Positions 1 through 42,569 of a stretch of DNA of 64,000 nucleotides are shown here, piece after piece (the first letter of the stretch is position 1; each line of letters starts with the position of its first letter). Origin of the DNA: Takakia lepidozioides (Eukaryota; Plantae; Bryophyta); contig CM060731.1 in assembly GCA_030704615.1 (NCBI GenBank), positions 16,678,001 through 16,742,000 of the forward strand, in the 5' to 3' direction. The translations under genes were made by a program, and so were the position numbers. The notes under the pieces were generated by a model. It saw nothing but the letters and a program-made list of their open reading frames with translations, was not told the origin of the DNA and made no database searches.

Positions 1-1273
1 TTTGAGAAGAAGGAGCGTCATCTCTTGTATCTCAAGTGTTGTGACAACCATTTGCCAAGGAAGTGACTTCTATGGTGAAAAGAATGCATTGAGGGTTTGT
101 AGAAGCATTATTGTGCACCAAGGGTTTGAGAGCTTGGAAAAGAGCTTTTGCATCACAAGAGAAGCGTCTTGTATGTGGAGAAGATAGGCACTAGGGTTTC
201 AAGAGCAAGCTCTAGTTATTCGTGGTGTGAAAGAGAAGCCAAAGAGCGGCACATGCTTGGGTTAGAAACACCATAGAATGAGTACAACAATGATAGCTTG
301 ACTCGGAGCATTGAGTAGCTCAAGAGAAGCTAAGAAGTGGTTGTTTTATCCATGGTGAAATGAAGCCAAGTGGGGTTTCATTTGGTTGACAAACAAGCAA
401 GCTAAGGCGCTAGAAGGGAGTGCTTTTGCTAGTCTATGAGTTCTTGGATTGCTCTTGGTGAAGCAAGTGGTTGACCAAACAAGTGGCGCATGTGTGGAGC
501 ATGCTTTCCAAGTGCGGCTTCCAACTTCAAACTTGAGGAGAGCTAGAAGGTGAAGGGAACAAGTCATTCTTTTGTATATGAGGTGATACTTATGTGGAGC
601 ATGTTTTCAGCCCATTGAGGCTTCTATTTTCAAGCCTTGGAGAGCAAGAAGAAAGGAAAAGGGCTGGTTTCCACTTAGGTGAAGGAAAAGCACTTGTAGA
701 GCACATCTTTGAGTTGGGGTTTCAACCTTAAGCTTGAGGAGAGCACGACTCTTGAGCTAGTAAGTGAAGGGACTTGAATCTTCCTCTTTGCATGAGATGG
801 AGATGTATTGATGCTTGGAGAAGCAACACATAGAAGCCAAGAATGGAGCATGTGTGTGGATGGCCAAAGGAGAGCACATGAATGAGTGCAAGACTTGGTT
901 GCTTGTCAAATGAGGTAAAAAACTTTATTCTTGAGTTCCAAAGAGAAGTGAGGTTTGTTGTGTGGCAAATGCATTGCTAGATGACATGGAATCAAGCTTG
1001 GTTGTGGTTTGAGGTGAAGAAGATCAAGGTAGTTTGCCTTGGTATCTCATAGAAGCCATGGATGCTTGAGGAGAGCAAGCATGAAGCTCAAGGAAGCCCA
1101 AATCCTAGCTTGGAATGCACAAACCCTAGCATGAGATGCACATGAAACCCTAGGTTCATGGGAACAGTCACCAAAATGTGGGAACGGTCATCGTAGTCTG
1201 GGAACCATCACCGTAGTCTGGGAACCGTCATCGTAGTCTGGAACCGTCACTATAGGCTGGGAACATAGTGACA
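1..1273 (-). mobile_element. Probable LTR of a separate retroelement (truncated by the window edge), inserted into the 5' region of the downstream Gypsy element
   Basis: The minus strand starts TGTCAC at 1273, followed by a 20-bp tandem array. No credible ORF. Sequence character changes abruptly at 1273. The other end is not visible. Confidence 0.4.
1159..1273. repeat. 20-bp tandem repeat, ~6 copies (TGGGAACCGTCATCGTAGTC consensus)
   Basis: Units begin at 1159, 1179, 1199, 1219, 1239 and 1258. Confidence 0.9.
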
Positions 1274-1449
1274 CACAAAGACAATATAGACCTTTTGGAG
1301 GATTTTCAAGGGCCTTTTGGAGGATTGTTTGGGGGATCTTTAGGGTCCTTTGGGGAGCTTTTGGAAGACACTCTGAGGAGCTTTTGTAAGGCACTTTGAA
1401 GAGCTCTTGAAGAGGTATTTGGATGACTATTTGGAGGCCTATTTACAGT

Positions 1450-1650
1450 CCTTGAAGGCCAAGTTTTGGAAAGTTTTTGGAGCCTTGAAAGGCTATGTGG
1501 AGGACCATTTTGGGGTCTTTGAAGGCCAAGTTTTGGCAAGTTTTTGGAGCTTTTGGAAGGCTATGTGGAGGACCATTTGGGGTCTTTGAAGGCCAATATT
1601 TGGCAAGTTTTTGGAGCCTTTGGAAGGCTGTTTGGAGGGCTGTTTGGGGT
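1450..1650. repeat. ~68-bp degenerate tandem repeat (~3 copies) in the Gypsy leader
   Basis: GGCTATGTGGAGGACCATTT at 1491 and 1559, with a variant at 1626. TTGAAGGCCAA recurs at the same period. Confidence 0.8.
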
Positions 1651-2441
1651 CCTTAGAGGCGAGCTTGAGGAGTCTTTGGCGACTTGTTGAAAAACTATTT
1701 GGGGTCCTTGAGGGTCGAGATTTGGTAGGCTCTTGGGGCATTGGTGTACTGTTTGGAGTACCATTGTCCAAGCTTTAGGAGTCTTAATGAGATTGTTTGA
1801 GAGACATCTTGAGGGATCTTAGAGAGTTATTTGAGAGATCCTTGAAAGGTCTTGTCTATTGCTTAAGCAAGAGAGTGTGGAGATAGGGTAGTGGGATGAG
1901 AGCATGTTGTGATAGGAATTGCTTTAGTCTCTCTTCCTTGTAGTCTTCCACCCTCTCTGTAGGCCAAAACCTTTCCGTAGGTGGAGGCAAGAGTCAGTCC
2001 TGGTTTGGGCTGGGGTGTTTTGCAGGAGCGACACCGTGGAGTGTTTTTGGTGTGGGGGAGTTACTGTTTTGATTTTCTTGTGCTTGGATCCCCTCCACAC
2101 CTGCATGCTTGACTGTGCGTCATGTTAGTTTGTGTGGGCGTTTGTTTTCATAGGAGGTTGGTCCGGATTTGATCACCGGTCAATCCTAGAGCGTGCTGTT
2201 GATGGTGAGGCTGGGGTGATGACCAGTCAGACCATCATTGTTATCTTATGGTGAGGCTGGGTTGATGACCAGCAGACCATAGGAGTGCTTGCGGTGGATG
2301 CAGGTGAAGGTACAGGTTTATATTATGAACCTAGTAGTCTAAGCCATAAGCTGCAACAGGTTCTCTACCACGGTTACCTTGTAGAAAGGGGGATTAGAGA
2401 CAGGTTTACAACAGGTGTGGTTGTAACTTTTCATCACGGAG

Positions 2442-3815
2442 GTGCCACCACTTGCTGAGGAGAGTGCCGGTATGAACACCAGCGATACTAGTGGGTATAC
2501 AAGACGAGGTGTGCGGTTTAGGCCACCTTCACCTTCAGTGTCTTCTGAGGAAGGTTCAGACTCGGAGTCAGGAGGATTCTCGCCGAGGGTGCAAGTCATT
2601 TCCGTGCCATTGTTGTGGGATACGATGGAAGAGATGTATGGAGCTACCAAGGGGCCACGTAGGTACTCTGGAGCTGTGGGCACCATCGAGCTTGATGACT
2701 TCATACAAGAGTTTGACAGTTGGTGTGATTTGCAGCAAATGTGCAATCCACAACTGTTTACGCCATTTATGGCGTGGAAGGGGCTATTCCAACACCTTGA
2801 GGGGCCGCCCATGGATGATTACCATGAATTTAGGCGGGGACACGTGGAGTGGTGAGAGTATTGGTCACCTAACTATGTCTCCATCACTAGAGGCACAAAG
2901 GCAGCGGCAACACCAATAGCTACACAAACATCTCCAACTGCAAGCACTAGTAGTGGGACAAGTGGTACAGGAGCTGGGAAATCCACTCAAGCTCCTACTG
3001 CAGCACCAGCACCCGTGCCTGCCTTTAATCCAGTTGTGGAGTTCTTCGAGGAGTTGAGGAGAGACTACCAAGGGATAAAGACAGAGAAGTTGCGGAGTTT
3101 GCAAGAGATCCAACGAAGGTCTACTGAGAGTTTGAGGGAGGCTTACACCTGCATGAGGCGATTGATAAACGTAATCCAAGGGGTTACAGAAGCTCAGGCA
3201 GTCCAGTTCTGGTATGGGATCCTGGACAAGGCGCTGAGGAGAAGGGTGCGGGATGCAACTCTCCTACAAGTGAACCAACCCACCTTAGCAAATGTGTTTT
3301 TGTTGGCAGAGCGGATAGAGCTCAATATGGTGGATGAGCGAGTGGTTATGGTAGGGTTTGGCAAGGAGACACAACGAAGTGGGGCTCCTAGCCAACAACA
3401 ACCACTACCCCAACGTGTTCAAGGCAACAATGGGGCTCAGGTGAAGCCCAGGGAAGGACAGAGAGGATCTCAGACGCAGAGGTCTCTTCCTTCATTCTCA
3501 GGCCAACAACAGTTGGATGTGACTTGTTGGGATTGTGGAGGACCCCATGTCAAGAAGGATTGCCCGGAGAGAGGCAAAGGGCCGGTATAGGCACAGCCTA
3601 CACAACTACAGTGTGGGCATTGTGGAAAGTATGGGCATGAGGAGGCCCATTGTTATGGCTTGCATCCTGAGCTACGGCCAGGCCAATTCCAAGAGAACAA
3701 TGGTGGCCGAGGACAAGGCAATGTAGTCCAGAAAGGTAGAGGAGGCAGAGGTTGGGGTGGAGGTCGTAACCAAAACCAAGGAGCATAGGGTCAGGGTCAA
3801 GGTCATGACCAAGGC
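2442..3815 (+). pseudogene. Gag (capsid-like region plus two zinc knuckles)
   Basis: One reading frame interrupted by stops at 2853, 3588 and 3786. Motifs Q..TESLREAY, CWDCGGPHVKKDC and CGHCGKYGHEEAHC (CX2CX4HX4C), followed by an RGG-rich tail. Confidence 0.85.
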
Positions 3816-4559
3816 ATGGTGGATAGACTTGCCCAGCTAGAGCAACGTCTTGCTGCCATGGCCACTACTCATGTTGCGCCAGCTCCAAGGCTTGAGGTTC
3901 AAGCCCTACCAGCACAACCTCCTATGCCTAGGGAAGATCAGATTGGTATGGGCTTCATGTGTGGAGCCGCACTTGCAGGGCCATTGCATGTATTGGACTC
4001 TGCTACTGCTGTCACTCGAGCAGCAATGCGTGCTCCTGAGCCAAGAGGAGCGGATGTGGATTTTGATCCACAAAGGAGAGAAATAAGTCGTCAGACAAGG
4101 CTTCCACAGTCCTTTACATTGGCTGAGACAGTGCCACCTACGCCATCATTGGCACCCGCTCGCCCAAGTGTGTCAGAGGTAGAGCCACGAGTGTCATTGG
4201 GGAGAGTTGGTGTGGCTCGGGAAATGCCAGTGGGTGGTGCTACAAAACAAGGTGCAGCCAGTACATTGTTGGGGGCGGCTACGGCGGTTTGCCAAGCTCC
4301 ATTATTTTCTGCCACGACAATTGCAATGTCGGGGATTCGGCCAGCTGCAGTGTTTAGACTGGCAGCTGCACTCTGTGAGAGTGGTGATGCATCGGCACTA
4401 TCTGCGGGGATAGCGGATAAGGTGCAATGCATGAATGCCCTGGATTCAAGGGTGAAGACAGCCACAGCTGCGCTATGGCAAGCGGCAGCTGCAAGGTTGC
4501 AGGAGTTGTCAGCTAGGCCAGCCATTGAGCGCAGTATGGTGACTCATGGGGTAGTCCTG

Positions 4560-4910
4560 GTGGACAATCAGGATGGTATGTTTCAGTTGGGTGGCCCAGC
4601 CGGGAGGAGGTATAGGCCACTGCGGGTCTTATTGGACTCGGGAGCACAGCCATTGATGTTGGGAAGAGCAGCAATTACACAGATTTGGAGCCTTGTCATT
4701 TCCAAATTCAAACAGCTTTGGGTGGTTCAGAGAAGGCACAAGGGATTACACGCCATGAGCTCTTCATTTGATTACAGCCGGATCATCCTATGGACGGCTC
4801 CGTCATGAGAGCTAAAACCATTGTTACGGACGCGATGTCCTATGATATGCTTGTTGGTGGGGCGGTATTATACCCCATGGGATTCACTCTGGACTTTTGG
4901 GAGGAAACGG
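4560..4910 (+). pseudogene. Retroviral-type aspartic protease
   Basis: VLLDSGAQ (LDSG at 4632-4643) in frame with Gag. After a frameshift near 4680 comes the C-terminal YDMLVGGAVL motif. Confidence 0.85.
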
Positions 4911-5327
4911 CAGCCTACAGGCCGGAATGTCAGTCAGGAGATGGCCGATGTGCACTGCTCTCAGTGCGGTTTATTGGGAATGTAGCGGTGGATCATAGGA
5001 ACATGATGCCCACATTGGCTCCATTCTCACGGGTGGTGGCTTGGGGTGGTGAGCTCTTGGAGGGAAATAACCATGCAGATGATAGGCCACCACCTGATGA
5101 GGACAAGCAATTGGCATACAAGGCTGAGTTGCTTCCTCATGTTCATGTACATAGCTCATTGTGGAATACAGTTGGGGATTTGTAGCGAGTGGCAAGCCAG
5201 TGTGTGCAGCAAGCATGGCAGGAGGCCTTTTCCATCGGTAGGTGAGGGGAGTTCAGTTACATCACCTGGACCTCCTCAATTAGCTTCATTGGACACAGTG
5301 CCTATTATCTGGCAACAACCTGACTCA

Positions 5328-6260
5328 GGCATTTGTTTACTAGACCTGTTTGGAGGCATGAGCACTGGACTTGCAGAAGTGTTGCAAGCAGGAATCAAAG
5401 TACGCAAGTACTTGTATGTGGAGAAGGATGAGATTGCTTGGTGTGTTTCCATGTGCCATGTTGCCTTGCTCACACATCAATATCCTGAGTTGTTGCCTCT
5501 CTCAGCAATTCAAGGGTACCAAAAGACATTGCCAGCAGACATTACCATGCTGGGGGCGGAGGATTTGGATCGGCATGATCCCATTGACTTGGTGATAGGA
5601 GGGTGGCCTTGCCAAGGACATTCACCCGCATGTCATGGTAATGGTTTGCAAGATGCACGATTGCATCTGTTTTGGGAGATACTGCGAGTGTTGCGTGACT
5701 TGCAGGTGAGGCAAGTGCAACCTCTAGCTTACATCCTGGAGAATGTTCCTCTCATGGGGGATTCTCGGGCCAGGGTTATGGTCAGTGTACATCAGATCCG
5801 GTCATGGATTGGCTTAGCTATATTGTTGGATGCAGCTGCAGTGGGTTCACGGGCACATAGGCCTAGGTTGTGGTGGACCAATCTTGCACCACCAGAGTTG
5901 CTCAAGAGAGCCTATGATTCTATTCAACAGCCACCCAACCTCACGGTTGAGGGCATTTTGGACCAAGGGAGGCAACCACAGAGAGTGCAACATGATGATC
6001 GTCTAACTTTGGCGGTGGTCAATCGAGTGGGGTAGCCACGTGCAGCCTCGCCTACGCTCATGAGCTTTCCCTCGTCTCATGTTTTTCGAGACAATGGTCC
6101 TGGGTTGATTTGGGACAGTGTGCTACAACAATTGGTGGAGCCCAATGCGGATGAGCGAGAGCGGGCACTACAGCTGTGCCAGCTCTGTCAGAAGCATCAC
6201 GACGCCAGGTGTTGGGTCAGGCAATGGATCTCAATTGCTTGATATGGGTCATTGGCTTGT
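5328..6260 (+). pseudogene. DNMT3-like C5 cytosine DNA methyltransferase domain embedded in pol
   Basis: Motif I LLDLFGG (5337-5357), II YVEKD, IV DLVIGGWPCQ (PC at 5607-5612), VI LENV (5736-5747), VIII DAAAVGSRAHRPRLWWTNL, IX-like ERERA, X RRQVLGQAMDL (~6200-6235). One stop (6033) and a small deletion/frameshift near 6170. Confidence 0.92.
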
Positions 6261-6699
6261 GTACGGCTGAGCAACGGAGATTGCAAGCATTGGTGGCTAC
6301 TTCCGCACTCCCATTGGATATTGCACCCTCTCTGCCAACCGGGACGGTGGAGGCAGTGAGTGGGGGCGAGCACAGGATCATGGGGTGCAAACACCCATGG
6401 CAGATATGGGATGAGATGCGCAAAGAAAAAGTTATTGGATCTCTCAAGCAACAGTATGAGGAGTGGGGAGAGCCATACACTGAGGATCAGTTGGAGGCCA
6501 AGGTGGCTAAGGTTTTTGAAGAGGTTGGCGATGTGTCTTCCCCAGAGGATGTTCTCAAAGTGGCTATGGCGGAGCAAGTGGAGGCTATGCCACAGTCAGG
6601 GTGGGCGGACAAGGCCCAAGAGGTTGCTATCTAGCAACCAAAGGATGCGTCTCCTACCTCCAAGCCTGGTGTACCAAAGGTTGTAGTCACTAAGGACAA

Positions 6700-8130
6700 C
6701 TGGGAACTAGATGTTGGACCTACAGTCACCGGAGGAGAGAGGCGGAGGATCCAGCGATTTCTAAGGGCTTATAGAAATTGCTTTGCCTTCGGTTTGAAGG
6801 ATTTGGGGAGTTTGAAGGGCCAGGAGATTCGTATTGATTTGGCAAGTGACACGCCAATTTTTTTCGAAGGCCCTACAGGTATAGTGATATAGAGAGGTCT
6901 TCGATCCAGTCACGGACTATGGAGTTGTTCGAAGCTGGATTGGTGGAGTTGTCAGGCGGGGAGTATGCTTCGGCAACGGTGATGCTAGCTAAGAAGGATG
7001 TCTATGGCAATTGGACAGAAAGAAGGATGTGTGGGGACTACCGTCCTGTGAACCGTCAGACTAAGTCCGATAGATATGCCATGCCAACTCCAGAGGCGAT
7101 CTTTGATGTCATTGGGTATGCAAAGGTGTTTAGCACATTGGACTTGCGATCCGGTTACCACCAGTTGCCAATCAAAGAGGCTGACAAGCAAAAGACGACA
7201 TTCTAGGGGATTGACCAACATGGGAAGGATTGCTTGTATCGATGGCGGTTCCTACTGTTTGGGCTGAAGAATGCTCCTGCAGAGTTTCAGAGGGTCATGG
7301 ATAGGATTCTTGCGGGGCTAGACTTTGCCCAGTGCTACATTGATGACATCATTATCTTTAGTGCTACGATTGAGGAGCACAAGAGACACCTTCAGATGGT
7401 GTTTGAGCGCTTGAGAGCGCATGGGTTGAAATTGCACCCTGGGAAGTGCAAGTTCTTCCACAACCAGATTGAGTATTTAGGCCACATGATATACCCTGGA
7501 GGATTGGGTGTTCAAAAGACGAAGGTGGAGGCCATTGCACGCATTCCACGCCCCATCGATGTTAGCAGAGTTCGTGTTTTTATGGGGTTGACAAAGTATT
7601 ATCGACGGTTTGTCAAGGGATTTAGCAGCATTGCAAAGGCTCTTACCAAGTTGACCAAGGTGGGTCAGGAGTGGCAGTGGGAGGAGGAGCAGGAGAAAGC
7701 CTTTGAGGAACTCAAGGCTCGATTGACTTCTGCGCCTATTCTGAGGCGGCCTATTCGGGGGCGGTCTTTCCAGCTACATACGGATTGGAGTATGCTGGGG
7801 ATTGGAGCAGTGCTCACACAGGTGGATGATGAGGGAAGAGATTTTGTAGTGGCATATGCTAGCCGCTTGAACAATGATGTCGAGGCGAAGTATAGTTCCT
7901 ATGACGGGGAGTATCTAGCTGCAGTATGGGCAGTGACACATTTTAGATGCTACCTCTATGGCAATCTCTTCACCTTTGTCACGGATCACCAACCATTGAA
8001 GTGGTTGATGGAGTCAGACAAGCTTACAGGGAAGCTTGCATGGTGGGTACTTATGCGTCAAGAGTACAACTTTCAGGTGGTGCATCGAGCCGGTATTGTC
8101 AATCGGGATGCAGATGGATTGAGTCGTAAT
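6700..8130 (+). pseudogene. Reverse transcriptase + RNase H (Ty3/Gypsy)
   Basis: RMCGDYRPVN, FSTLDLRSGYHQ, FGLKNAPAEFQR, YIDDII (7336-7353), KCKF, YLGH; RNase H motifs LHTDWS, TDHQPL, DADGLSR. Confidence 0.97.
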
Positions 8131-8482
8131 CCATGCACGAGCAAGCATGATGATACTGGAGCTCTGTGGCATGGTGAGACAGATGAGGAGATGGTGCCAG
8201 GATTGCATGCATCGACCTTTTTGTGCATTCTAGCAATGGGAGCTCAAGCTGGTCCATCCCATGCGATTGGTCATGTAGATAGCGTGCATGACGATCCAGA
8301 AACTAGTGAGGAGTTCGGTGGTGCTAAGGATTTATATAAAAATGCAGCAGTGTTGGCCTACCTTCGTACTGGAGAGACAACAAACCAGTGTGACTACTAC
8401 GGAGAGAGATCAGATCCTACAACGAGCCAAAAGGTTCAAGTGGGAGGGGACTCACCTACTCCGAGTATAGGAGGATGGACGA

Positions 8483-9600
8483 GTGAGGATTGTGCCTCAT
8501 CCAACACAGCGAGCGCGATTGGTATGCCATGCCCATAAGGAGTTGGGACATTTTGGGGTGCGCCACACTCATAGTTTGCTGCAAGGACAGTATTGGTGGC
8601 GGGGCATGCACACGGATGTACAACAGTTAGTGACAAGGTGCATGGTGTGTGATAGAGTGCGGGCTTCTTTCAACGCCCCTACTCCACAATTGCATCATTT
8701 ACCCATTATGGGTTTGGGCTATCGTTGGAGTCTTGACTTCGCAGGCCCATTGCCACTGACGATTCGCCATAACAAGTATGTGCTAGTGATGGTGGAACAT
8801 TTCTCCAAATGGATTGAATTGGTGGCATTGCTTGACAAGGCAAGTGAGGGGGCTGCGTATGCATTCTTAGACCAAGTGCTTAGCCAATTTGGTGCTCCAG
8901 CCGAAGTACTCACGGACCATGGAAGAGAGTTCTTGAGGGAGTTTCAAGCTTTGTGTGAGCAAGCCTTGATAGATCACCGCACTACTTCTCGGGATCATCC
9001 CGAGGCTGATGGCTTGGCCGAGAGGGTTGTGCAAACAGTCAAATGAGACTTGTGCAAGTATGGCTTGCAGAAAGGATACTTGGGAGATTGAGACCTTCAG
9101 CTACCTTGGTTGGCCATGGGCTACAGGTTTAGCAAACAAGCATCGCTTGCCTCGTTCTCGCCTTATTTCCTTCTCTTTGGCCGAGAGCCAGATTTGCCTG
9201 TATTTATTCGCATGAAGACTGCAATAGTCCTCAACCTTGATAATCCAGATGTGTGGACACAAGCATGTACCCAGCGGGCAGAGTAGTTCAAGAGAGTCAT
9301 GCCTATGGCTTTTGAGAACCTTGCTATTGCCCAACACCGAGACACATTGAGGTACGTCATTATACGTGGAGGAGGATATTGGCCAGGTGTTCAGGGTTTC
9401 CATCCTGGGGACTATGTGTATCTGCAGCAGATAGCGCCTACGACCTTGGATGTCACAGGAGGTCGTGTGATTCTAAGGGTCCGGGAGGTGTTGCCTTCAG
9501 GAATGTTGATTCTGGAGGGTCGAGATGGCATGGTATGGAAGGACCATGTGCGCAATTGTGCGCCATGTCACCTTCCACATGTGGATGGAATGATAGATCC
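8483..9600 (+). pseudogene. Integrase
   Basis: HHCC zinc motif (H..LGHFG...CMVC) and DDE core SLDFAGP / TDHGREF / DGLAER. Stops at 9044, 9088 and 9284. Confidence 0.95.
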
Positions 9601-9631
9601 CAACCTTGTAGTGGTACCTGCAGGGTTACGT

Positions 9632-9766
9632 TGCATGCTCTGTGGGCATGCTGGTGGTGCCGCGACCATGTTGGTGTGTGACAAATGCTCAAGGGGGTGG
9701 CACATGGGATGCTTGACACCGCCACTTGAGGAGGTTCCTAGTGGAGAATGGTTGTGTCCACGATGC
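9632..9766 (+). other. PHD finger (C4HC3) at the integrase C-terminus
   Basis: CMLC...MLVCDKCSRGWHMGCLTPPLEEVPSGEWLCPRC has all eight ligands plus the conserved W. The polyprotein stops at 9773-9775. Confidence 0.93.
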
Positions 9767-10027
9767 CTTGGATAGAGGTAGTGGGGCATGACAGTGGTGA
9801 GGTTGACAAGTGATCCAAGGTCTAGCTAACGGGAGTTCAATGCCATGGACACCCAATTGAAGCCATGGATTGCAGGAAGGCGAGTAACGATGGGGCTACT
9901 TTTGCACCCGGCCTCTTGATCTATTGCCTTCAGATACTGGGACTTGGGCGATTGATGCCCAAGCGATGATCTTATTGGGATGGATACTTGTCAGCTATCC
10001 GGTGTTAGAGGGACCTAATCACCAGCT

Positions 10028-10037
10028 AGGGGGGAAA
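10028..10037 (+). promoter_or_regulatory. Polypurine tract
   Basis: AGGGGGGAAA lies just upstream of the TG start of the LTR at 10039. Confidence 0.8.
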
Positions 10038-10038
10038 T

Positions 10039-10576
10039 TGTGGAATAGTTTTCTAGGATTATGTGCTTAGATTGTGTGGTGGACAGCGATGTATGTTGTG
10101 GCACGATGCTTAGGTGCACGACAGCTGTCATGGTTTTAGTCATGGTTATCTAGAATTACCTACTTCTAGTTAACTAGGACATTTTAGATATTTACATTTA
10201 TATTTTGTGTGTTGGGACTTCATTTGGTCTCACATGTCAAGTGAGGTGTCGAGCCTCACTTGGGACATGGGGATAGGTTTTCCCCTTGTGAGGATGGAGG
10301 AGGCTCATCTTCTTGTAGTTCAGCCTCCATGAGCCTCTCTCACCTCCATAGCTCTAGGTATTGAGAGGGAATGTGGTGAGGGCTTTGTAGGGTGGATTCC
10401 CTTAGCAAGGATGCCCTTGGCTTGACTTAGTTTATGTGATTGAATGGATTCATGAGTGGAGGGTTTCCATTATGTTCACTTCCATTATCATTGTGGTATA
10501 GCTTTCTAGGATTGTGTGCTTAGATTGTGTGGTGGACAGCAATGTATGTTGTGGCACGATGCTTAGGTGCACAACA
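10039..10576 (+). repeat. 3' LTR of the Gypsy element, containing 85-bp direct repeats at both ends
   Basis: Starts TGT after the PPT and ends ACA before AT-rich flank. 10039-10123 and 10492-10576 are near-identical. Confidence 0.7.
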
Positions 10577-11820
10577 GAAACATCAACAAATTAATCATAA
10601 TATGATTGAAAATGAAGATAAAAAATCCAAACAAATGCGTTTCAAGTGGCTGCCAGCTCATGACCAACCTGTTCTTATGTTTACGTGTCCCCAGTTCCCA
10701 TGGTTAACTACCTCCATCATATTCATATGTTTACGTGTTCCTAGTTCATTGGTCATATCAACCCATATAAATATCCACCCCCATATATAAACATAGTTAA
10801 ATTTCGGTGAACATATTTTAACAAATACCGAGATTTATATTGTAAACGATATCATGTACGCCATCTGAGTACTATTGTGCACTTCATCTAACGTACAGAA
10901 ACACAATCATTTTTGTCTCTTTGCCACATGGGAAGCTACTGTTGCATTGTTCTTAAAACATCATTTAGAATATAAATCCGACTATAAATCCAAAGATATG
11001 TCCGAAATTAATTATTTTGGCTTTCCATTATTTTGTTAATATTCCATTATATAGATAAGCACAGATTAGTCATATTTGCTTGTTCTCGACAAATGCAGCA
11101 ATGTATCTAATGAAGAACACGATCATGAAGAAAATCAAAACAATTTTGAAGATGTAAAAAAATATATAAATAATTTTCATATGAAGCTTTAATTAACTAA
11201 TGTCTCAAAATATTGCCACATCTCACCTATTTTAAATGCTAGATAATATTTTATATCAATGTGAGGAGGAGCCATTACGCTACTAGCCGCTTGTTTAGCA
11301 CTTATAATTGTTTGTTTAGTGTGATTGGGATAGTCAATATTTAATTCAGATTTACGAATATTATCACATCCCAAAAAAAAAAAACAAAAAAAAACATGAG
11401 GTATAAGATGGCATCCAAATTTTCCTTGACAACATCGTGATGATATGATGTTGTCAAGGTGGCATAATCCACACTTGTGAGAATGATTTACTTATAGGTG
11501 TTATTTCTTTATTATTATTTTAAAATAAAATTTAGAATGTTAAGTTATTGAACATAGCTATCGATGCTCATCGCATTGATTAAGCCGTATTTACGTCTTC
11601 AATGTATTGTTCATAATGACAACTAGTAGATTTCAGCTTCACTGTCACCACGATGGATCTTTTAGCAATTTCCAATGGCGTGGGGCCACACAAGTTTACC
11701 GTATTGATAACAACAGGATCTCTTGCTTTTTCTACCACACATCCGGGTTTCTATCTGGATATAAAGGACGCTATAACCTCCAGTTATCAATATGAGCCAG
11801 ATATTAAAACTCATATAACC

Positions 11821-11950
11821 AGAAGGAAGAAGAAGAAGAAGACTCCGGAGGCCAGCGTAACTAAGAGCCACTTCGTCTTGCGGCTACTGCGCCCTTTCAG
11901 GGGTGGGCCCTATGTAAGAACTTGTGTCCAGGGGACACCAATGGGATAGA
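11821..11950 (-). mobile_element. Very short 3' remnant of a LINE with a (TTC)n tail
   Basis: Shares the 70-nt 3' motif with the elements ending at 23031 and 31673, and ends in a trinucleotide tail (GAA repeats on +). Confidence 0.7.
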
Positions 11951-14140
11951 AAGGAAGAGGTACCCGTGGCGCTACGGGTACCACGTGGTACCCATGGGGC
12001 TCATGGGTACCAACGGGTACCTAGGCTAGAATGAGAGTTTTTAAACATTTTCATTCATTAAATTGAGTTTTATATACTTTATCTAGTTACTAATAACACT
12101 CTTTTTCATAAAGTCCTTTACAATATGGAAGCCAAAGTACTCCATGAATTGTCTACATTAAATACAATTATTTATTATAGATGAACGGTGGGCCAAGGTT
12201 AAATTTGTAAAAAGATGTATTTTTATTATTATAGTCAATTTGGGATCACGTTATGGATGACACAGGGCAGCACATATCATCCATAACATCTTTCCCTCTC
12301 CCATTTGAAATGACAGTATCTCACCAAGAAACGTTCAACATGATATAGTGCAAGTGAATCCACTTTTTGGTTATGTTTTATGATTTTTATTTTTATTTTA
12401 AATCTTATGTACTTTTATGTAGGCCACATCTTCAACTATTTGGTCCACTCTTCATTGCACCTACCCTAGAAAAGTTGATATTTGTGCCAGCTGCATGTCT
12501 TCTTGAAGTAGGATACGAATCACCATTTTTTGTTTTTTGTTTTGTTTTTTCTGGAAAATAGCAGGAAATAGCCGTATATTCTATTCATTCATTGAAATTT
12601 GGATGGGGTCATCCTCATACATACTTTCATCCATTGATATCATCCACATTGCACAAATTCATCCATTTCTTGTTTTTTATTTGGAGAAGTTTGGCGATTA
12701 ATCCTTGAAATAACAGCATTTGCGACAAAATAGTTTATTTACGTATTCTTTGTTTTGTTGTGGATCTTCAAACGCACGAATTTTGGTGAAGCTGAGCAGA
12801 CATTTGCCATAAAAACTCGGCCTCCTAAGACTAAGTTGACCCTCCGAAGAATCTCATAAACACCAAGAAAAATATCAAAATACATGATCAAGAGCCCACT
12901 TTTGCAAGATGGACAAGTTGTCTTCTATTCCAAAGCGTTGTCCCTTCAGCTCGCCGTATTCTCATCAAGCCGCAACCAAACATAGTCGCTGCACCACTAT
13001 CCACCAACTCTCAAAATCTACAAAACCCTAGTTATGTTGCGGTGAGTGACAACAGACTCTTCTATGCATGAGAAGAAAACGAGGAGGAGTTCATGCCAAT
13101 TAGGTTGAAATTCTTCATTGGGGCGGAGCTCCGCCCTCCCGCCACCAGTTTCTGCTTAATATTTAGCCATGACTAATTCTATAGGGTTTCACCAACTTTC
13201 CTCTTTTACCACTATTATTACCTCTCTCTTTAGCGGTTCCTCTAAGTTACCCTCAGCTACGAATCTAGCTCCATCTCCCGCCATAGCTCGTTCTGTGGCT
13301 TCTCGCACTGCCAAGCAGTCCCCCATGGCCGGCCAACAACTCTACTTCCCCCCTCCCCGCCTGTAAGATTCGCCTCTTCTCCACGCTTCTTTCAAGCTAT
13401 CTTTCGCTCGCTTTCTTATCGTTTCATGGGCAAACATGTTCTACGACTGCCCTCTGCCTCCCTTCTCGTCGCTCCAAACGCATCAGGTCTCAAGTATGCT
13501 ACCCCGCCTGCCTGCTCAGAGATCACATCACCGACAGCTCCGCGTGCTACCTTATGGTTTATACGCTTCTTCGAACTGTGGGTACTATCTCGCTCCTCAC
13601 TTTGGCATACTCAAGCTCCCCCGTGTGGCGGTGGAAGCTCTACCACCCACCCCTTCTCTATCAAAAATGGAGCTACGACTTGACCCGTATGCCTATAGCG
13701 ACGCACCACCCATTACGGGTTGCTCTGCCTACTTCGATATATGCAGTCAACACTGTAATGCGCTTCCCCAAACAGCGCACCCTGCTCCCAACCGGTGCTT
13801 CATTCGGAGCACAGCCTCTCAGTTATATGTCTACGATGGTGGCAAGCTGGGCGGGTGGCTGCCATCCCCCCCCCCCCCCCCCCCCTCTCTTAATCAAGCT
13901 GAGCAGTCTTGTATCATAATGATGCACAGTACTCAAACAATGGAGCATCTGGTCTGGTGGATCCCATCTCTAATAGAAGGCCCTGCGGGGCGGTGGCTTT
14001 CTATCTCTTGGCATGGCTACAAGTAGTACCATCTAGATTCCAGGGTACAGGTTGTGATGGTGGGCCCAACGCCAACCTCCATCAACTCAACGCCTACACA
14101 TTTCCAGGGAGCATACTCACCCTCCACTCAAAATCTATAT

Positions 14141-14990
14141 CATTTCTCCTCCCTCCATACTCGACCCCATATTCCACTCTTTATTCTTTCTTTGATTTTT
14201 GCTCAACAGTCATCCCCATCATGTTACTACCAAGTCTTCTACAGTACTGTATTGCTCAATCCACCCTGCCTGACTCACCCTCAATGTACTCTCCCCCCCC
14301 AGATCATGTATTCACAACCTTCAGATATGCGTCAGCCACCACCTTCGGTCCCTCTTTGTTCCATACCCCACTGCATCCCAAACACAAAATCCCCCACTAC
14401 TCATTCTACACCCCAAAGTTTCACAGTGAACCATCTCTGCCAGCCTATTTTTTCACTAACTATAGACACTACTCATGTACTGGCTCCCTGCTTCATATCC
14501 AACCTCTTGGCCCCCCAACTCAGCTTCATGCCCACTGTTTGCCAACCCTATCAATAACAACCAATATAATTTCTCCTCCCTCCATACTCGACCCCATATT
14601 CTATTCTTTCTTCTTTCTCCAATTTTTGCTCAACAGCCATCCCACATCATGTTGTTGCCATGTCTTACACAATGCTGTATTGCTCAATCCAACCTGCCTG
14701 GCTCACCCTCAATGTACTCTCCCCCCCAAATCATGTATTCACAACCTCCAGATATGCGTCAGCCACCACCTTCGGCCCCTCTCTATTCCACAACCCACTA
14801 CATTTCAGGCACAAAATCCCTCGCTACTCATTCTACACCCCAAAGTTTCACAGTGAACCACCCCTACCAGCCTATTTCTTCACTAACTACACTACTTATG
14901 TATTAGCTTCCTTCTTCATATCCAGCCTCTTGGCCCCCAAACTCAGCGTCATGCCCACTGTTTGCCAGCCCTACCAATTACAACCAGGCC
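14141..14990. repeat. Tandem duplication, two ~425-bp units
   Basis: TTCTCCTCCCTCCATACTCGACCCCATATTC at ~14143 and ~14571. Downstream blocks (CAGATATGCGTCAGCCACCACC, ATGCCCACTGTTTGCCA) repeat in the same order. Confidence 0.9.
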
Positions 14991-15410
14991 CCCAATAAAT
15001 TTACTCCCATGGAATTCTCAACCACTGCGTGAAGTTCACTCCTCCCTCACTGTCATGTTGCATTATCCTGCTCAATTGTACAACCTGTGTTACATTGCCA
15101 TCATTTTCTGCCGTATGTACTAATTTCCATCTCTCTTTTACAGGCTCTATGACAAATCTCCAATCAATGCTACACATATGTTCCACATATACGTACCCTA
15201 TGTTTACAGCCAATACTCCACATTGCTACCCAGTTGGCATTGGGCTCAAGGGAAGTCTTCCCTGCCCATCTGACCCAACCGTACACATTACCACTTCTAT
15301 TGTTCAAGTCCAATGTAACTTCTTGCTGAACTCTGCTATACCCAACGCTCTTATCCAGGCGGCCCCAGGTGTTCAAGCTAGTCTCCGCTGCCCAGTTGCC
15401 CCAACCGTAT

Positions 15411-16861
15411 AAGACGCCAAACTCACTAAACAAGACATTTACCTCTTGTACATCGACTTTAAAAATGCCTTTGGATCTCTAGACCATGCTCGTCTCCTCG
15501 CTATTATGACGGACGTAGGATACCCAACTGATGCCATTCAACTCATTGGCAACATTTATACTGGCAGCTCCACATTAAGCCCATATCTTTTTATCATCTT
15601 TTTAGAACCCTTTTAAAGATGGATTGAGCGTGGCAAACTAGGCTACCGCTACAAAACTTCTGATAACGAAATCTCTGTTGCAGCATATGCCGATGATCTT
15701 GCCAGATCCTTCCCCACAAACCTCAGCATCTCAATCTACAAGTGGACAAATTATCTCGATTCAATCAATGTTCTGGCATGGAGCTAAGCCTGCACAAATG
15801 CGTTGTTACCGCAGCCACCAATTATAGCCAATTCACTAAGTCTACGACTGCCTCACACTGCAAGTTGCAAATCCACTATCAAAATAAAAACTCCCCCTTC
15901 CTAGGCCCTGACGAACTCTACACCTACCTAGGTATACAACTTGTTCCCTCACTTACATGGCACCTACAAAAAACCATTACGATTTCTAAACTGACCGTCA
16001 GAAGCATAGCCCTCGTCAAATCTCTAATCCCCTCCGCCCCAAACTTTCCCTTATTCAATCGGTACTCAAACCACAAGTCCAATACTCTTTTCACGTGACA
16101 CCCTTCTCCCTCCGAGATATTAAATTAATCGATAAACATTTTATCCAACTCACTAAACTTATCTGCGGTCCACCCATCAGCACCCCTAACGCTCTTACCC
16201 AACTCCCAACAGATAACTACGGCATTGGTACCATCCCACTAATTATCTCCTACGCCCGCACCCTCGGCACACAACTTCAAGAAGCACTCAATGACCCCGG
16301 ACGACTGGGACTTATCTATAGGGGTCTCCTTCAATTCCTAGCTATTAAGTACAATGGCCTTTACTCCCTACTAACCCTTCATTCCCAATCTTGCCGCCAC
16401 TCGCCCACTGCTAGAACTTTATGCCAAATGAACATCAACATACAAACCGATCTCCCGGGCTACCTTAACACCACCTCACCCCTTGAACAAGCATGGCTTA
16501 ATAGTCCATCTCTCTCCAATTTTGAGGAACTCCACCCCCGCCAAAAAACGCCCATACTTGCCTACTTTAAAATCAGGCACATTGCAACAGTCGCCCAACT
16601 CACCACAGCCTCTGGCTATAGGCTACTCTCTCCCCGTGAGTTCACTCTCAAATACTCCAGAGCCACCGTCAAAACGTGTCATTACATGTCCCTGCTTCGA
16701 ACCCTCTTCTGCCACAAGATTTCCTCGTGTACTCTTGAGTGCGACCTACCATGCGAACTTTTTCCCCATAACAAACAAGACCTTCTTAGAACAAACCCAG
16801 CCCCCTCTATTCTCATTATGATGGCAGCACATAAAGCTCACCCTGACCCTCTAGTAAATGC

Positions 16862-16893
<32 letters not shown>

Positions 16894-17980
16894 GCCGCGG
16901 GTACCGGACACCTTGCCACATGCTATCCCCTCCCAAATGACCGGCTCTAACTCGACCATACCTACCTCACATGGCTCAACCACCCCCCACACTCCTATCT
17001 ATCCCCCCACTACCCTGCTGTCCCCAGCCAGCCCGCCCTCACCCCCGAACCCACAATATATTAACCCAGACAACCCGGAAGCCTTCATTATCGAAGCTAT
17101 TTTAGGAACCAGAACTCAAATCACCATCGATGAATTTGGCGCCACATGCCTAAAATTTCTACCTATGCAAATGGGCTGGGTATGCAGTGGAAGACAACAT
17201 CTGGCAAGCAAAGGACGACCTATTTGGGTCCCATGATGACACTGGGTCAACCCAGCCCACAACCTTGACCTCCTTACCGCATTTCATAAGTCCACTAACA
17301 CCAACTACCTAGCCCATATCCACCAACAATACACTTCTCAAACCCAATCAATAGACGCCCGATACGTCCATAACCCCCTCGCTGCCCCTGAGGTACATGT
17401 CTGCATCACATAATGTAATCCTAACAAAGACATTATACACACCTCCCCCTAATACGCCCCGGAAAATGTATGTCCAAGCCTCTCATGGTCGCTACATTGG
17501 ACTCATTCCAAATGACAGACTCACCTGGTTATGGCACAGATTCTCAACCTCAAACCCACCACCTAGCCAGCTCACACCCGCTAGGCAAGACTTCGCTACA
17601 GAAGTCTGTTGGCTCGTGGACCGCTACTTGGTTGATACCCACCCCAGAAAACCTCGCTCCCTCCTCAAGCTAACACAAGCCCAGTCTCATACTACCCTCC
17701 CACCGGACATCCTAGCATTTCTTATAGACTCTTTTCGAATCACGCACTCTTATTACTCAAACCCACTTACATGCCCTATGATGCTCTTGTCATACTCAAG
17801 CCCACACCCCCGAGACTGCATATTTGGAGCCTTAGGCTCCGCCTCTCAACATACCTAGACTGACCGCGGCTTTGCACACCCACCCCAAGGGTCTCCCACG
17901 CAAGTCGCGTTACAACGGGCTCGCCACGCGGCCCATTCCTCCCCCTCTGCCGCCACCATCCTTCTTCTAACACACCAACA
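15411..17980 (+). mobile_element. Degenerate non-LTR retrotransposon (Dualen/RandI-like): RT, chromodomain and adenine-MTase-like domain
   Basis: RT motifs YIDFKNAFGS, LSPYLFIIFLEP, AYADDL, LSLHKC, YTYLG. Downstream domains are described under findings. The C/T-rich region ~13100-15410 may be its 5' part, but this is unconfirmed. Confidence 0.8.
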
Positions 17981-21700: not shown

Positions 21701-22425
21701 GCACTTTGCTGCGATGCCCCACATGTATTTGCTGCTCCATTTAATCATCAACATAGTGCTCCAGAGCCAGTTCCCCATTGTTGACTAGTTGACCTTCTCA
21801 GCCCTTGGACCCCATTTTCCCTTCTCCCATGTTGCCTCGTCTTTCTGCTTCATCATTTGCTTTACTTGCACGATGTTGCTTCTTCCCTACAACTCATCAT
21901 GTGTTGTGGCTCTTTCCCATGTTGCACTCACTCCCATCACACGTTGTGCAGTTGATAAGACTGAGATGAGTTGATGCAGGATAGGGGGAGGGCTTGCCGG
22001 TATATGTTGTCCGATAGGCCCCACGCACATAGTCAAAGCTGGAAGTCAGCCTTGCAAAGACCAAGTGAGAGAAGTCTGGTGGGGGTAGCATCTTGGGGGA
22101 TGGCAGTTAGGGCAATGTGTGTCTAGGGCAATATATGTCATAGCAGCAGGTGATGTGCTGCCAATTTTGAGAATAGAGACAGCCTGCAAGCTGTAGATTT
22201 GTTTCAGTGGTTTCTTCTGACACATATTGCTCCCGGTTTGCCACAACCAGTTTTGTTTGCTTTTGTAGTGCATGTGCGAGCCTGTTGGGGAAGGGCAAAG
22301 AGGTCCATGGCGCACAATTACGCACATGGTCCTTCCAAGTTATGCCATCCCAATTGTGGCAGATGTCATTATGAACAATACCCTTGTGGACAAGGAGTGT
22401 TCAACAATATGGCTGAGCGAAGGAT
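18770..22425 (+). pseudogene. PLS-class pentatricopeptide repeat (PPR) gene remnant, split by an insertion
   Basis: Repeated P-L-S type units: ERNVVSW.VMIAGHAQQGRGLQVLETYEQ, GVQPDRDTFICVCNACA, GKEVHGCIVKAG, LVDMYAK. Stops and frameshifts throughout. The motif breaks at 19581 and resumes at ~22252. Confidence 0.88.
19582..22251 (-). mobile_element. ~2.7-kb unclassified insertion within the PPR pseudogene
   Basis: It interrupts the CACATTACGTT|TGTTTG junction that is intact in the sister repeat at ~19305. It holds decayed K/E-rich minus-strand ORFs with no diagnostic motif. Confidence 0.55.
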
Positions 22426-23030: not shown

Positions 23031-24315
23031 GACTCCGGCCGAGGCCGGCATAACTAAGAGCCACATCGCCTTGCGGCTACTGCCCCCTTTCGGGGGTGGG
23101 CCACCCCGTAACCCAGGGGATAGGTGTTCGGGGAGGTACCCCAGGGGGGACCCCTAAGGAATACGAAGTATCAAGAGGCCTACGAGATATGGGATTCAAG
23201 CTTCCTTTTGTTGGTGAAAATAGCAGTGAGAGAGCGCAGTGCAGTCATGTGGATAGCTTTGAAGCATTTGTGTATAGGGGAGAGATAGGAATTTTGAAAT
23301 TATTGTGAAGAGCGGAAATACTAGCATTGTGGATGCCGCCTCTGGTACCGGCAGTAATGACTGCTATGGGACCTGTGGACCAGCTATAGCAGCGAATGGC
23401 TAGAATGAGTGAACTGTATTTTTGACATTTTTCCAAGGTGGAGGAGCCGGGGTAGCGAATTACAATATGTGAATTCAATAAAGTGTATGGTAAGGTTTGG
23501 GGATGGGGAGCTGGGCGGTGGTGCGTTTATGGGCAACCCGTGGATTAGGAGTATCTCTAGACAAAGTCTGGCATGACAAGTGCAGGGTGAATGTGGCCGG
23601 CATGAACATGGCAGAAGCCATGAGGGTACTGTGTGGTCAGAGGGCCTACCCTGGTAGGTCCCCGCATTGATGAGTGAAAACCAGCGTGTTTCAAAGCGGC
23701 ATAGGAGTAGCTTATGGATGTTCCAGACAACATGGTTATGTCGAGTGATACGAAGGCCATGGATGATGTGATGTGTGCATTGGTTGAGTAGGTGGGACCA
23801 AGTATCGTAAGCCGAGTGGGTGCTAGCACAAAGTGGACAGTTTGGGGAGGGAAAGAGTCGGGGCCAGAAGATGTGTTTACGCTAGTGACCCATGTATTGT
23901 GCGTATATGAATTTGAGGGTCTGTCTTATTTGTCATCCGTGGCGAGATTAGTGTGCCAGAAGTGATTAGACAATCGACGTGTAATTTAGTGTGACTAGCG
24001 GAGGTCGAGGCTTGCTTGCTAGCTTCTCGAGTAAGGGTGGTTGTGAGGTTGTGGATAGGGCGGGGCTCCGTGGGGCCTGGAACGGGGTGGATGAACCAAA
24101 TTGGGTGGGTATGGGCAACATGGATGCATAGGGTCTACCTCGGGTCGAGTGGCCCCTTGTTGGGCGAAGAAGTCAGCCATTTTGTTGCCAGTGATGCCAG
24201 TGTGGGAGCGAACTATAATAAAGTGGATGGGCTGGTTTATGGAGTTAGCAAGATGAACGATGGCATCGATGAGGTTCCGATCGAGTGCACTAGAAGCATT
24301 CGTGTCATTTACCAC
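23031..24315 (-). mobile_element. 5'-truncated non-LTR element with RNase H, CCHC and restriction-like endonuclease tail
   Basis: RNase H C-terminus IHFIIVRSHTGITGNKMADFFA; CPLC...DTWSHLLNQC; K..KY...VITAGTRGGIH; shared 3' motif at 23031-23102. Confidence 0.85.
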
Positions 24316-27254: not shown

Positions 27255-27826
27255 TCACTTACATAGTCTACCACATTCGAAGCTATATGGCATGTTGTGC
27301 ATGAACGGCCAAACTGTCTTGATCATACTTAAATTGTTGTGAATTTGATCCTTGGAGGCACTCTCTCCTGTAGATAACACTTTGATATGAAGAGGGAAAA
27401 TTCGTGTATTCTTTGGGTTCCTCCGTGCTTTGGAAGGCTTATCGTCAACTAAGAGAATTTGACCCTGTTTCGCAAAAGGCTTGTTTGCAAACTTTACTAA
27501 AACTTTGTCAAGATCTTTGACTAGGTACTTCATCCCATACATGATGTAGCCGGACGTAATTGAACAGTACTCAGCTGACCAAATGAAATTAAACGGCTCC
27601 ATGATCTCTGTTGGAACAAAAGCCTCTAACATTTTGAAAAGAACATCCTTTTGGGCGCATGATCAAATAGCGATGTAAAAATTCGCATCAACAACTTCAG
27701 AAAATCGATTACACATGGACGAGGAATTACAAATGGTGTTTCCGGCACTTGAAGTTTTATGCGTTGTCTGGGATATTTAGCTCTCAACAACAAAATAACA
27801 TTAGTACCGGTAGAAGAACAAAACAA
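27255..27826 (-). pseudogene. FCP1/NIF-like (HAD superfamily) phosphatase domain remnant
   Basis: IPRPCVIDFLK, FIWSAEYC, VKDLDKV, ILLVDDKPSKARRNP. Frameshifted; the DxDxT motif is not seen. Confidence 0.7.
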
Positions 27827-31672: not shown

Positions 31673-33075
31673 GACGCCAACCCAAGTCAGCGTAAATAAG
31701 AGCCTCTTCCCCTTGCGGGTACTGCCCCCTTTCAGGGGTGGGCTCTATCCGCACCGTAACTTGTCATACAGTGGCTAGTTGACCACTTTCAATCTTACGT
31801 TTATTGATGATTAGGGATGTGAGTGATGTAATAGCTGTGAAGTGTAAAGCTCGTAGTAGAGGTGTACTATATTTGGGTGGTAGGTTGAGATTATTTTTCA
31901 AACCTTGGATATTATGGGTATGAGCACCGCCCCAAACACCTGCAGTGATGACGGTCAGAGGTGCCATGTTCGAGCCTCGCTGACGGAGGGCATGTATGAT
32001 TGGGTCATATTTTTCATGTTTGTACATAATTGATTGATCTGGATTTCGATCATGGCAGAATGTAAATTCCAAAAAATGTATTTTGAGAGATGGAAGGGGT
32101 TCCATCGGCGGCAATGCAAGTACAGGAAGTCCTTGGACTAGCAAAATATTTGGGCATAGCCTTGCCAGGCAAAGGCACGGGTGCCCTTGGGAGCATACAC
32201 AAGGTAGTAGCCATGGGGGTATAGTGTGGTCCGGTGGGCGACCTTGGAACGTGCCTGCATTGATGAGGTTAAACCATCTGGACTTCGGATGTGAAGTGAG
32301 AATTTTGTGGAGTTGTCTAACCCCTTGGTTATGTCTAGTTACCCATGAATTATGGGGTGGTTGCAATGGAGAAGTAAGTGTGGCCATGTGTCTATTTGGG
32401 GATTTTGGGATGAACATAACATGCAGTGTTTATTAGGGTATAATAATGGCCAGAACAAGTTTCGTCGTTGATTGCCCATATATTGACCATACCGAAATTT
32501 CAGAGTTTGTTTGATTTGTGCATCAGTAACCCCGGGGGATGCCCAAAAATGATTGGACATACTATGTAGAAGGTGCGGGGATGAGACCCACTTAGATATG
32601 TAGGAATTCATGTAGGTACGAGATTCTTGTATGAGTAGTTTGGTCTCGCCTTTAATGTGTGTGTGCAGGTTTCGTATAGGTGCTATGGTCGGGAATGTAG
32701 CCCTTGTTGATATGAGCCAAAACGGGTATATGTGCGACCGGTGGATAGAGCTGGTCGAGGGGTTGGTGATTGGATGAATGGCACCAAGAGCAAGATGGTC
32801 TGCTATGTCATTACCTATTATATCTGTGTGAGATCAAACTTTATGTATATGGATTTGTAGTGGTAAAGATGATACAATATCGACGATTCCTTTATAAGTG
32901 TAATATCAGGATGGTGGATCTATGATGATGGCTTGCAGATTTGGTTGATGAGAAGATGTAGGGAGACCAAGCTGTCTGTAAATAAATAGTATGTTGAAGT
33001 AGGTTGGTATGGGAGAGACTTGAGAGCATCATGTATAGCCATAAGCTCCGCTCTCAAGATATTTTGGCATGGAAT
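31673..33075 (-). mobile_element. 5'-truncated non-LTR element: RNase H - CCHC - restriction-like endonuclease (Dualen/RandI-like)
   Basis: ILRAELMAI, FTDSL, HKV*SHTDIIGNDIADHLA (RNase H); CMLC...DTWPHLLLHC; TRHN; P(N)ILLV...LEFTFC...KHEKY...VITAGVWG (PD-(D/E)xK-type RLE pattern). Confidence 0.88.
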
Positions 33076-38170: not shown

Positions 38171-38249
38171 TGTTTTTTTTTTCCTTAGAAATCCAGGGAC
38201 TCGCCGTGTTGCGTTTTGTTTTTAATTTTTTAATCATGAAGCGGCGTCT

Positions 38250-42532: not shown

Positions 42533-42569
42533 TAATTGTTCTTTTTTAAAATGCCCAACGCTCGTTTCA

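Follow-up and report, generated by a model that had tools for sequence, protein, structure and literature searches.

The window, the whole 64,000-nt stretch of Takakia lepidozioides DNA that was analysed, carries on its plus strand a decayed Ty3/Gypsy element (~2430-10576) with gag, protease (PR), a C5 methyltransferase (DNMT), reverse transcriptase (RT), RNase H (RH), integrase (IN) and a PHD finger. Its parts and ends are as follows.

2427-3790 (+): Gag region containing CCHC-like knuckles, interrupted by stops at 2853, 3588 and 3786; 43-47% identical to the uninterrupted relatives P0174/P0166 by tblastn
4520-4990 (+): aspartic protease (DSG, Asp at 4635); frameshift near 4676, stop at 4769
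5328-6260 (+): DNMT3-like C5 cytosine methyltransferase domain, with motifs I-X in unpermuted order; interrupted by a stop at 6033 and a frameshift near 6167-6170
6632-6640 (+): in-frame stop TAG followed by CAA CCA (CARYYA context); terminates the Gag-PR-DNMT frame and is conserved in relatives
6695-8130 (+): reverse transcriptase (YIDD at 7336) and RNase H; PF00078, PF17917, PF17919; frameshift near 6860, stop at 7204
8387-9600 (+): DDE integrase with H2C2 zinc finger; PF17921, PF00665; frameshift near 8380, stops at 8468, 9044, 9089 and 9284
9620-9772 (+): PHD finger at the integrase C-terminus; PF00628, E 1.2e-11; also in relatives
10028-10037 (+): polypurine tract (PPT), abutting repeat B1; in the same place in 16 of the 18 relatives listed, absent in the other two
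10038-10123 (+): repeat B1, ending GACA; 82/87 identical to B2
10120-10129 (no strand): palindrome GACA-GC-TGTC at the B1/A2 junction, holding the CA and TG signals where genomic copies end
10126-10490 (+): repeat A2, beginning TGTC and ending CA; its 5´ twin A1 is absent from the window copy
10307-10318 (+): candidate self-primer, a 12-nt stretch complementary to the sequence following repeat A in sister copies
10491-10576 (+): repeat B2, the right end of the element (CA); contig depth drops to flank level behind it

The PR-RT-RH-IN order with a DDE integrase, as expected of Ty3/Gypsy, was found with Pfam and PDB matches, a relative's best PDB match being Ty3 Gag-Pol (E 4e-98). The protease of relatives matches PF13650/PF13975, weakly or clearly, and the Gag region of the window copy gave no match in the Pfam scan. 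PDB neighbours of the PHD finger are CHD4, PHF12 and PHF21A; PHD fingers of this type may read unmethylated H3K4. The original prediction had the copy disabled by one stop and one frameshift. Both are real within the DNMT, but comparison with uninterrupted relatives reveals at least 11 disabling stops over the full copy (those given above within the coding parts and another at 5183) and five frameshifts (the four above and one near 5245). The PHD finger, the split repeats with their internal palindrome and the self-complementary primer site had no place in that prediction. In host run X1, 42,449 contigs map to window positions 1-11200, with the DNMT part covered, and their summed depth, which does not equal copy number, is 68,000-132,000 on the element versus 276 in the flank. 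The window element is a dead copy of an abundant, old green-plant Gypsy lineage that carries its own DNMT3-like gene.

Other features lie further along the window. Positions 13900-17900 (+) hold a decayed LINE-like stretch with a weak match at 17355-17858 (E 3.5e-4, below the cut-off) to PCIF1_WW, a domain tied to adenine methylation, and fragments similar to this stretch are found at 23384-23881 and 31764-32833 (-). There is a LINE RT at 45986-47590 (+), another Gypsy integrase fragment at 42517-43116 (-), and a 44-nt inverted match (22306-22349, 89%) to the integrase C-terminal region at 9524-9567. Arrays of ~50-nt units with a palindromic core (37500-38200 and 42200-42550) flank a kinase-like ORF (39013-39423), possibly as a DNA transposon. 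A NIF phosphatase-like ORF lies at 33664-34290 (-) (PF03031, E 5e-7); the ORF at 27255-27662 (-) resembles it by eye and gave no Pfam match. An IQ-motif exon, myosin-like in appearance, occupies 55275-55775 (-).

The methyltransferase domain and its relatives

As predicted, the C5 methyltransferase motifs are intronless, on the plus strand and in canonical order: motif I (LDLFGG) from 5328, the Glu of motif II at 5421, the PCQ Cys at 5610, the ENV Glu at 5739, the two Arg of RxR at 5859 and 5865, and motif X at 6215. The profile check that had been proposed gave a match of 5304-6032 to PF00145 at E 2.4e-12 (47.4 bits, the cut-off being 22). For the same region the best PDB sequence matches are DNMT3A (E 3e-12) and then DNMT3C/B, with DRM2 at merely E 0.09, and the likenesses to DNMT3A quoted earlier (DLVIGGWPCQ to DLVIGGSPCN; RRQVLGQAM to RQRLLGRSW) are visible in alignments. 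The motif order and the DRM2 value bear out the claim that DRM-type permutation is lacking; identity with plant DRM is ruled out, as the motifs are not circularly permuted. A structure model of the uninterrupted DNMT domain of the relative L059, built from a 60-row alignment, reached pLDDT 94.8, and Foldseek matched it to DNA-bound DNMT3A (TM 0.83, E 3.5e-20), all 31 matches listed being DNMT3A/B/C. According to the model, the fold is of DNMT3 type.

The catalytic residues that the prediction had named (PC/ENV/RxR) are retained across the lineage. Among ungapped rows of 197 aligned domains, the Cys is present in 191/193, the ENV Glu in 192/196 and the two Arg in 190/196 and 189/194. Selection on the domain was assessed as dN/dS over 36 DNMT pairs, 13 of which were saturated and gave no value. 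The 17 between-lineage pairs, among them L058-L059 at 0.12 (dS 0.25), fall at 0.11-0.28, in keeping with the predicted selection as opposed to neutral drift, though the six close pairs, from the largest, decayed family among the 80 loci, range from 0.47 to 1.08. Since RT values for these same pairs are lower (0.23-0.39), the DNMT may have been relaxed in that family, which counts against uniform constraint. We consider it probable that the domain is catalytically active in the lineage. The alternative, in which it serves to bind DNA or RNA or to methylate RNA, with no DNA methylation, appears improbable. It would fit the replacement of Pro by Glu before the catalytic Cys in 73/194 rows and the result for the Klebsormidium nitens domain of KnitGypsy-Dnmt3, which gave no methylation in yeast, an outcome deemed inconclusive by its authors (PMC5890265). 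The near-invariance of Cys, Glu and both Arg throughout the lineage and the resemblance of the predicted fold to DNA-bound DNMT3A, however, speak for a DNA methyltransferase.

A sequence search with the DNMT domain returned 192 proteins of near-equal length and 41 longer ones, at identities of up to 67%; the named matches include Marchantia, Calypogeia and Sphagnum plus a Spirogloea fragment. A profile search gave 385 clusters at E 1e-30 or better; 20 were looked up among the best 150 of these, and Closterium (3), Mesostigma (1) and K. nitens (1, GAQ93235.1) were named, bringing the named streptophyte genera besides Spirogloea to six. GAQ93235.1 has a zinc knuckle-protease-DNMT arrangement collinear with ORF1 of L059 (27% over 587 aa, E 4e-51). 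These matches, together with the many host-run contigs, bear out that sister copies carry the domain, and the possibility of an assembly artefact or a one-off capture of a host DNMT3, to which the decay of the window copy and its missing 5´ repeat might point, is negligible in view of the 385 clusters, the six genera and the host-run contigs over the DNMT part. With the relatives, the retained residues and the dN/dS values taken together, the prediction that a multi-copy Gypsy family bears an ancestral DNMT3-like domain under selection is supported.

In 57 of the 80 loci, which derive from few metagenomes and represent about six independent lineages, the DNMT C-terminus is followed by the RT start at most 1.5 kb away. 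Among 400 proteins, the DNMT follows the protease or precedes the RT in 71, lies between RNase H and integrase in 133 (e.g. P0158, P0187, P0377; the sole named one is from Monoraphidium neglectum) and stands alone in 183, while six have no DNMT and seven gave no match. Many of the RNase H-DNMT-integrase proteins have Glu-Cys at the catalytic motif, and some have extra Tudor or G-patch domains. The two DNMT layouts are separated by one change in an RT-RH tree (107 rows, FastTree, support 100), and DNMT trees agree on this split (87/86 for 200 rows, FastTree; SH-aLRT 96 for 35 chosen rows). In the 200-row DNMT tree the window DNMT clusters with proteins from Marchantia, Calypogeia and Sphagnum, a position that by itself makes a bryophyte host likely. 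A viral-contig scan supplied four distant methylases (E 3e-11 or weaker) as a rough outgroup for this tree, with a long-branch warning. As the trees lack a reliable root, one capture followed by a move is indistinguishable from two captures.

A conserved stop between methyltransferase and reverse transcriptase

The DNMT had been placed inside pol, between an LDSG protease and a YIDD RT. The neighbours are as described, with the protease Asp upstream and YIDD downstream, but the conserved stop at 6632 lies between DNMT and RT, so that the DNMT closes the Gag-protease frame and is not within the RT-bearing frame. In the relative L059, a single TAG divides an open Gag-PR-DNMT frame of 1369 aa from an open RT-RH-IN-PHD frame of 1047 aa. 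Across 58 sequences (57 loci and the window), TAG or TAA followed by CAR-YY was found in 50, a second stop in the place of CAR in three, loss of the stop in one and rearrangement in four. Strict CARYYA is present in eight of the 58 (the window, L001, L027, L058, L059, L067, L077 and L078), compared with a background of 63 of 19,736 TAG/TAA (0.3%); 42 of the 50 conserved stops belong to one large family with CAA-CCC/CTC and then ATG, which is not strict CARYYA. The stop context is retained while flanking residues diverge (five lineages with CAR-YY-A), and each of the spacer lengths (268, 310, 391 and 397 nt) preserves the frame, with several decayed copies shifted. Mere damage at 6632 is ruled out by this conservation in relatives. 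The expectation of one open PR-DNMT-RT frame does not hold for the window's clade, where the stop and its readthrough context intervene; a single frame without the stop is found in deeper relatives only, such as P0199, P0348 and P0349, and the stop therefore looks derived. Among Marchantia gene models, P0124, P0131, P0132 and P0138 fuse DNMT to RT and P0125 and P0127 stop soon after the DNMT; P0124 has no spacer, so the DNMT-RT joins in Marchantia models may be gene-model artefacts.

CARYYA is the readthrough signal of tobacco mosaic virus (TMV) (PMC7026636), and its presence here leads us to regard occasional readthrough of the conserved stop as likely. RT and integrase would then likely be minority products, with the DNMT made at Gag levels. 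This Gag-side placement yields a concrete dosage prediction, but the absence of the stop in deeper relatives and the RNase H-DNMT-integrase layout described above indicate that Gag-level dosage is not required across the wider lineage. It is unlikely, in our judgement, that the stop is a true stop and that RT-RH-IN-PHD comes from re-initiation, an internal promoter or splicing. Such an origin is suggested by the CAA CCC ATG behind the stop in the largest family and by Tca2, which shows that conservation of a gag-pol stop does not always mean readthrough through local context, a junction promoter being described and no local readthrough (PMC2194720). Against it, neither the window nor L059 or L067 has a Met close to the stop, and CAR-YY-A is kept in five lineages despite unrelated flanking residues, with spacers in frame.

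Split repeats and a proposed route of integration

Two full, identical terminal LTRs, usual for Ty3/Gypsy, were not found; instead, repeat A stands on the left and B-A-B on the right. The complete arrangement A1-internal-B1-A2-B2, with A1 upstream of gag, was seen in five loci (L037, L049, L051, L054 and L072), and the window has PPT-B1-A2-B2. Neither blastn nor a search for the primer complement with up to two mismatches detected A1 in window positions 1-12000. Positions 1-1870 hold a different repeat of 60-67 nt tandem units in place of the element's 5´ repeat, with a summed depth far below the element's.

TG...CA ends, a PPT and short target duplications, as in Ty3/Gypsy, are present in relatives, and the ends likewise in the host family. 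In the relatives' loci, elements start at the TG half of the palindrome and finish at its CA half, and the 4-bp target duplication is perfect in six of seven loci with both ends (3/4 in the seventh). The palindrome, which also occurs in the distant relatives L059 and L067, is part of the repeat's own sequence and lies at a distance of ~90-115 nt from the PPT. Host-run contigs show the same boundary, 35-36 departing behind 10123 and 20-22 entering before 10126 with unrelated flanks (agreement 0.39). At the A2/B2 join, A's last base meets the base after the PPT, flush in seven of nine distinct insertions. Two imprecise joins (L022:13320-13360 and L037:10825-10865) were noted, one retaining 9 nt of primer-site copy and one a 19-nt filler ending PPT-like. 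The mirror product, A-B-A-internal-B, was not seen: B precedes the A1 start in none of 19 distinct A1 starts. This product is predicted by a symmetric two-LTR circle and should result from cutting the other palindrome, and its absence does not fit the route proposed below. B-only right ends as products of one-LTR circles were set aside, as L025/L062 show B-only and B-A-B at one site. No tyrosine recombinase was matched by Pfam in the long plus-strand frames of L059, L067 and the window, and identity as a DIRS element was rejected because the scanned frames gave no recombinase match.

Inspection of the A1 junctions by eye revealed no primer site of tRNA type behind A1, and the window holds no tRNA gene. 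The 20 nt after A1 match the reverse complement of A over at least 9 nt in 12 of 26 copies, three of which reach 16 nt, whereas none of 468 control windows exceeds 8; many A1 copies have a TATA-like box ~28 nt upstream. For the host family, the loose end behind 10490 in host runs X3 and X5 is the reverse complement of the candidate self-primer at 12/12 nt; this pair differs in sequence from the relatives' pairs, with a similar offset. For the primer complement, a hairpin partner close by and a second site exist as well, and L059 and L067, both contigs without the A end, gave no clear pair. Tf1-type self-priming has such a layout, with the complement of the post-repeat sequence within the 5´ repeat (PMC4600332, PMC6317226), and these pairings make it likely that reverse transcription is self-primed in a Tf1-like manner.

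We propose the following course of events. Gag-PR-DNMT would be the main product, with RT, RNase H, integrase and PHD finger arising from occasional UAG-CAR-YYA readthrough. The methyltransferase, probably freed by the protease, would enter the particle in amounts like those of the capsid protein and there methylate new cDNA. The RNA would start inside A1 and prime itself, and with the plus strand primed at the PPT the product would be a linear B-A-internal-B-A cDNA. Joining of its ends would give the A/B junction seen in genomic copies, and the DDE integrase would cut one internal GACA-GC-TGTC and insert the TG and CA ends, giving A-internal-B-A-B and a 4-bp duplication, with the PHD finger steering integration. 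The layout of the ends suggests that a DDE integrase may use an internal site in end-joined cDNA, a form usually treated as a dead end. Integration from such an intermediate seems to us reasonably probable, and towards the explanation as a whole we incline slightly.

The same A...B-A-B ends could arise without a free circle, by head-to-tail cDNA dimers, by integration at palindrome halves with host repair, or by a DIRS-like route. Each would yield the same genomic product, the absence of the mirror product suits no simple circle, and the two forms of right end at one site in L025 and L062 imply that ends can change later or collapse in assembly. We nevertheless hold these routes to be the less probable course, though a serious one: uninterrupted frames gave no tyrosine recombinase in Pfam scans, the 4-bp duplications and TG/CA ends indicate a DDE integrase, and all versions require internal cleavage and an A-to-B end join.

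Whether the cDNA is the substrate of the DNMT is evenly balanced. That the DNMT instead targets host chromatin or the site of insertion, or dampens its own element's activity, is a doubtful reading for the window's clade, where the domain lies on the Gag side of the stop, far from the integrase, as fits packaging. In its favour are the PHD finger of the integrase, which points to chromatin reading, the DNMT adjoining the integrase in the sister clade, and the fact that these options were named by de Mendoza et al. (PMC5890265).

Within the end-joined cDNA route, a further and quite speculative idea is that the integrase uses strand-specific hemimethylation to choose the palindrome, which would make the methyltransferase and the permuted ends one device. 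The core CAGCTG palindrome would occur twice in the end-joined cDNA; if the DNMT methylated the first-made repeat duplex, strand displacement would leave the two repeats hemimethylated on opposite strands and the integrase could pick the palindrome accordingly. Were this so, the missing mirror product would be explained, and the family would be a restriction-modification-like retrotransposon integrating from a circle and spread over green plants.

Plants silence transposons by cytosine methylation, and despite such silencing the lineage, in algae as in mosses and liverworts, has held on to a DNMT3-like domain of its own. Because Marchantia has annotated copies, the reason for a transposon-borne methyltransferase can be tested in a model plant for which methylome data and mutants exist. 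LTR finders that require paired LTRs would likely overlook the family, whose proteins inflate the DNMT counts of bryophyte proteomes.

Relation to known systems

The stated precedent for DNMT-bearing retrotransposons in dinoflagellates and a charophyte proved correct (PMC5890265). A 'Gypsy-DNMT3' of streptophytes is mentioned in 10.64898/2026.05.21.726589, and DNMT3 in streptophyte retrotransposons in PMC12344493. In the literature covered, which lay outside subscription journals, theses and Repbase, we found no account of a land-plant family, a readthrough stop, self-priming or palindrome integration for DNMT Gypsy elements.

DIRS elements use a tyrosine recombinase, whereas the window family has a DDE integrase, a PPT, TG/CA ends and 4-bp target duplications. 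The A1...B1-A2-B2 layout is nevertheless common to the family, SymbioDIRS-Dnmt3 and PAT/Ngaro DIRS, as is a DNMT3 domain to the family and SymbioDIRS-Dnmt3, whose domain is reported to methylate CG de novo in yeast (PMC5890265). Tf1/Sushi and the plant Tcn1 chromoviruses likewise are described as lacking a tRNA primer site and having the post-repeat complement inside the 5´ repeat (PMC6317226, PMC4600332); the window family differs by a PHD finger instead of a chromodomain, for which the window, L059 and L067 frames gave no Pfam match, and by the DNMT and split repeats. An in-frame stop with CARYYA is shared with TMV (PMC7026636), and retroelement frames split by an in-frame stop with MuLV gag-pol and SIRE1 pol-env (PMC2194720), but in the window family the stop follows protease and DNMT, not Gag. 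In foamy virus, a DDE integrase is described to cut a palindromic CA/TG two-LTR circle junction (PMC1180852), cleavage being a proposal in the window family; the foamy virus palindrome is formed by joining cDNA ends, whereas the window family encodes it within the repeat and its genomic copies are permuted. Gypsy-7a_cRei of Chlamydomonas also has a PHD finger in a Gypsy polyprotein, but no DNMT among its listed domains, and near-ordinary paired LTRs (PMC9940879). The host plant DNMT3 PpDNMT3b has the same unpermuted DNMT3-type catalytic domain; host enzymes differ in carrying DUF3444 (PMC6453930), which was not matched in the window or relative frames.

The closest comparison is with KnitGypsy-Dnmt3 of K. 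nitens (de Mendoza et al. 2018), described with DIRS-like repeats and Ka/Ks <0.2 (PMC5890265). Common to both are the Gypsy domain set, an intronless, unpermuted DNMT3-related domain, purifying selection and DIRS-like split repeats. According to its authors, KnitGypsy-Dnmt3 has DNMT, RT and RNase H in one ORF, whereas a conserved stop intervenes in the window's clade, and we therefore do not file the window element as a member; the text covered from that paper makes no mention of land-plant hosts, a PHD finger, a primer complement, the palindrome or target duplications. The K. nitens protein GAQ93235.1, a partial protein that may or may not belong to the KnitGypsy-Dnmt3 family, falls on the same side of the DNMT split as the window (SH-aLRT 96; FastTree 87), in trees that are unrooted and at some distance. 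The window element works like KnitGypsy-Dnmt3 and is probably related to it.
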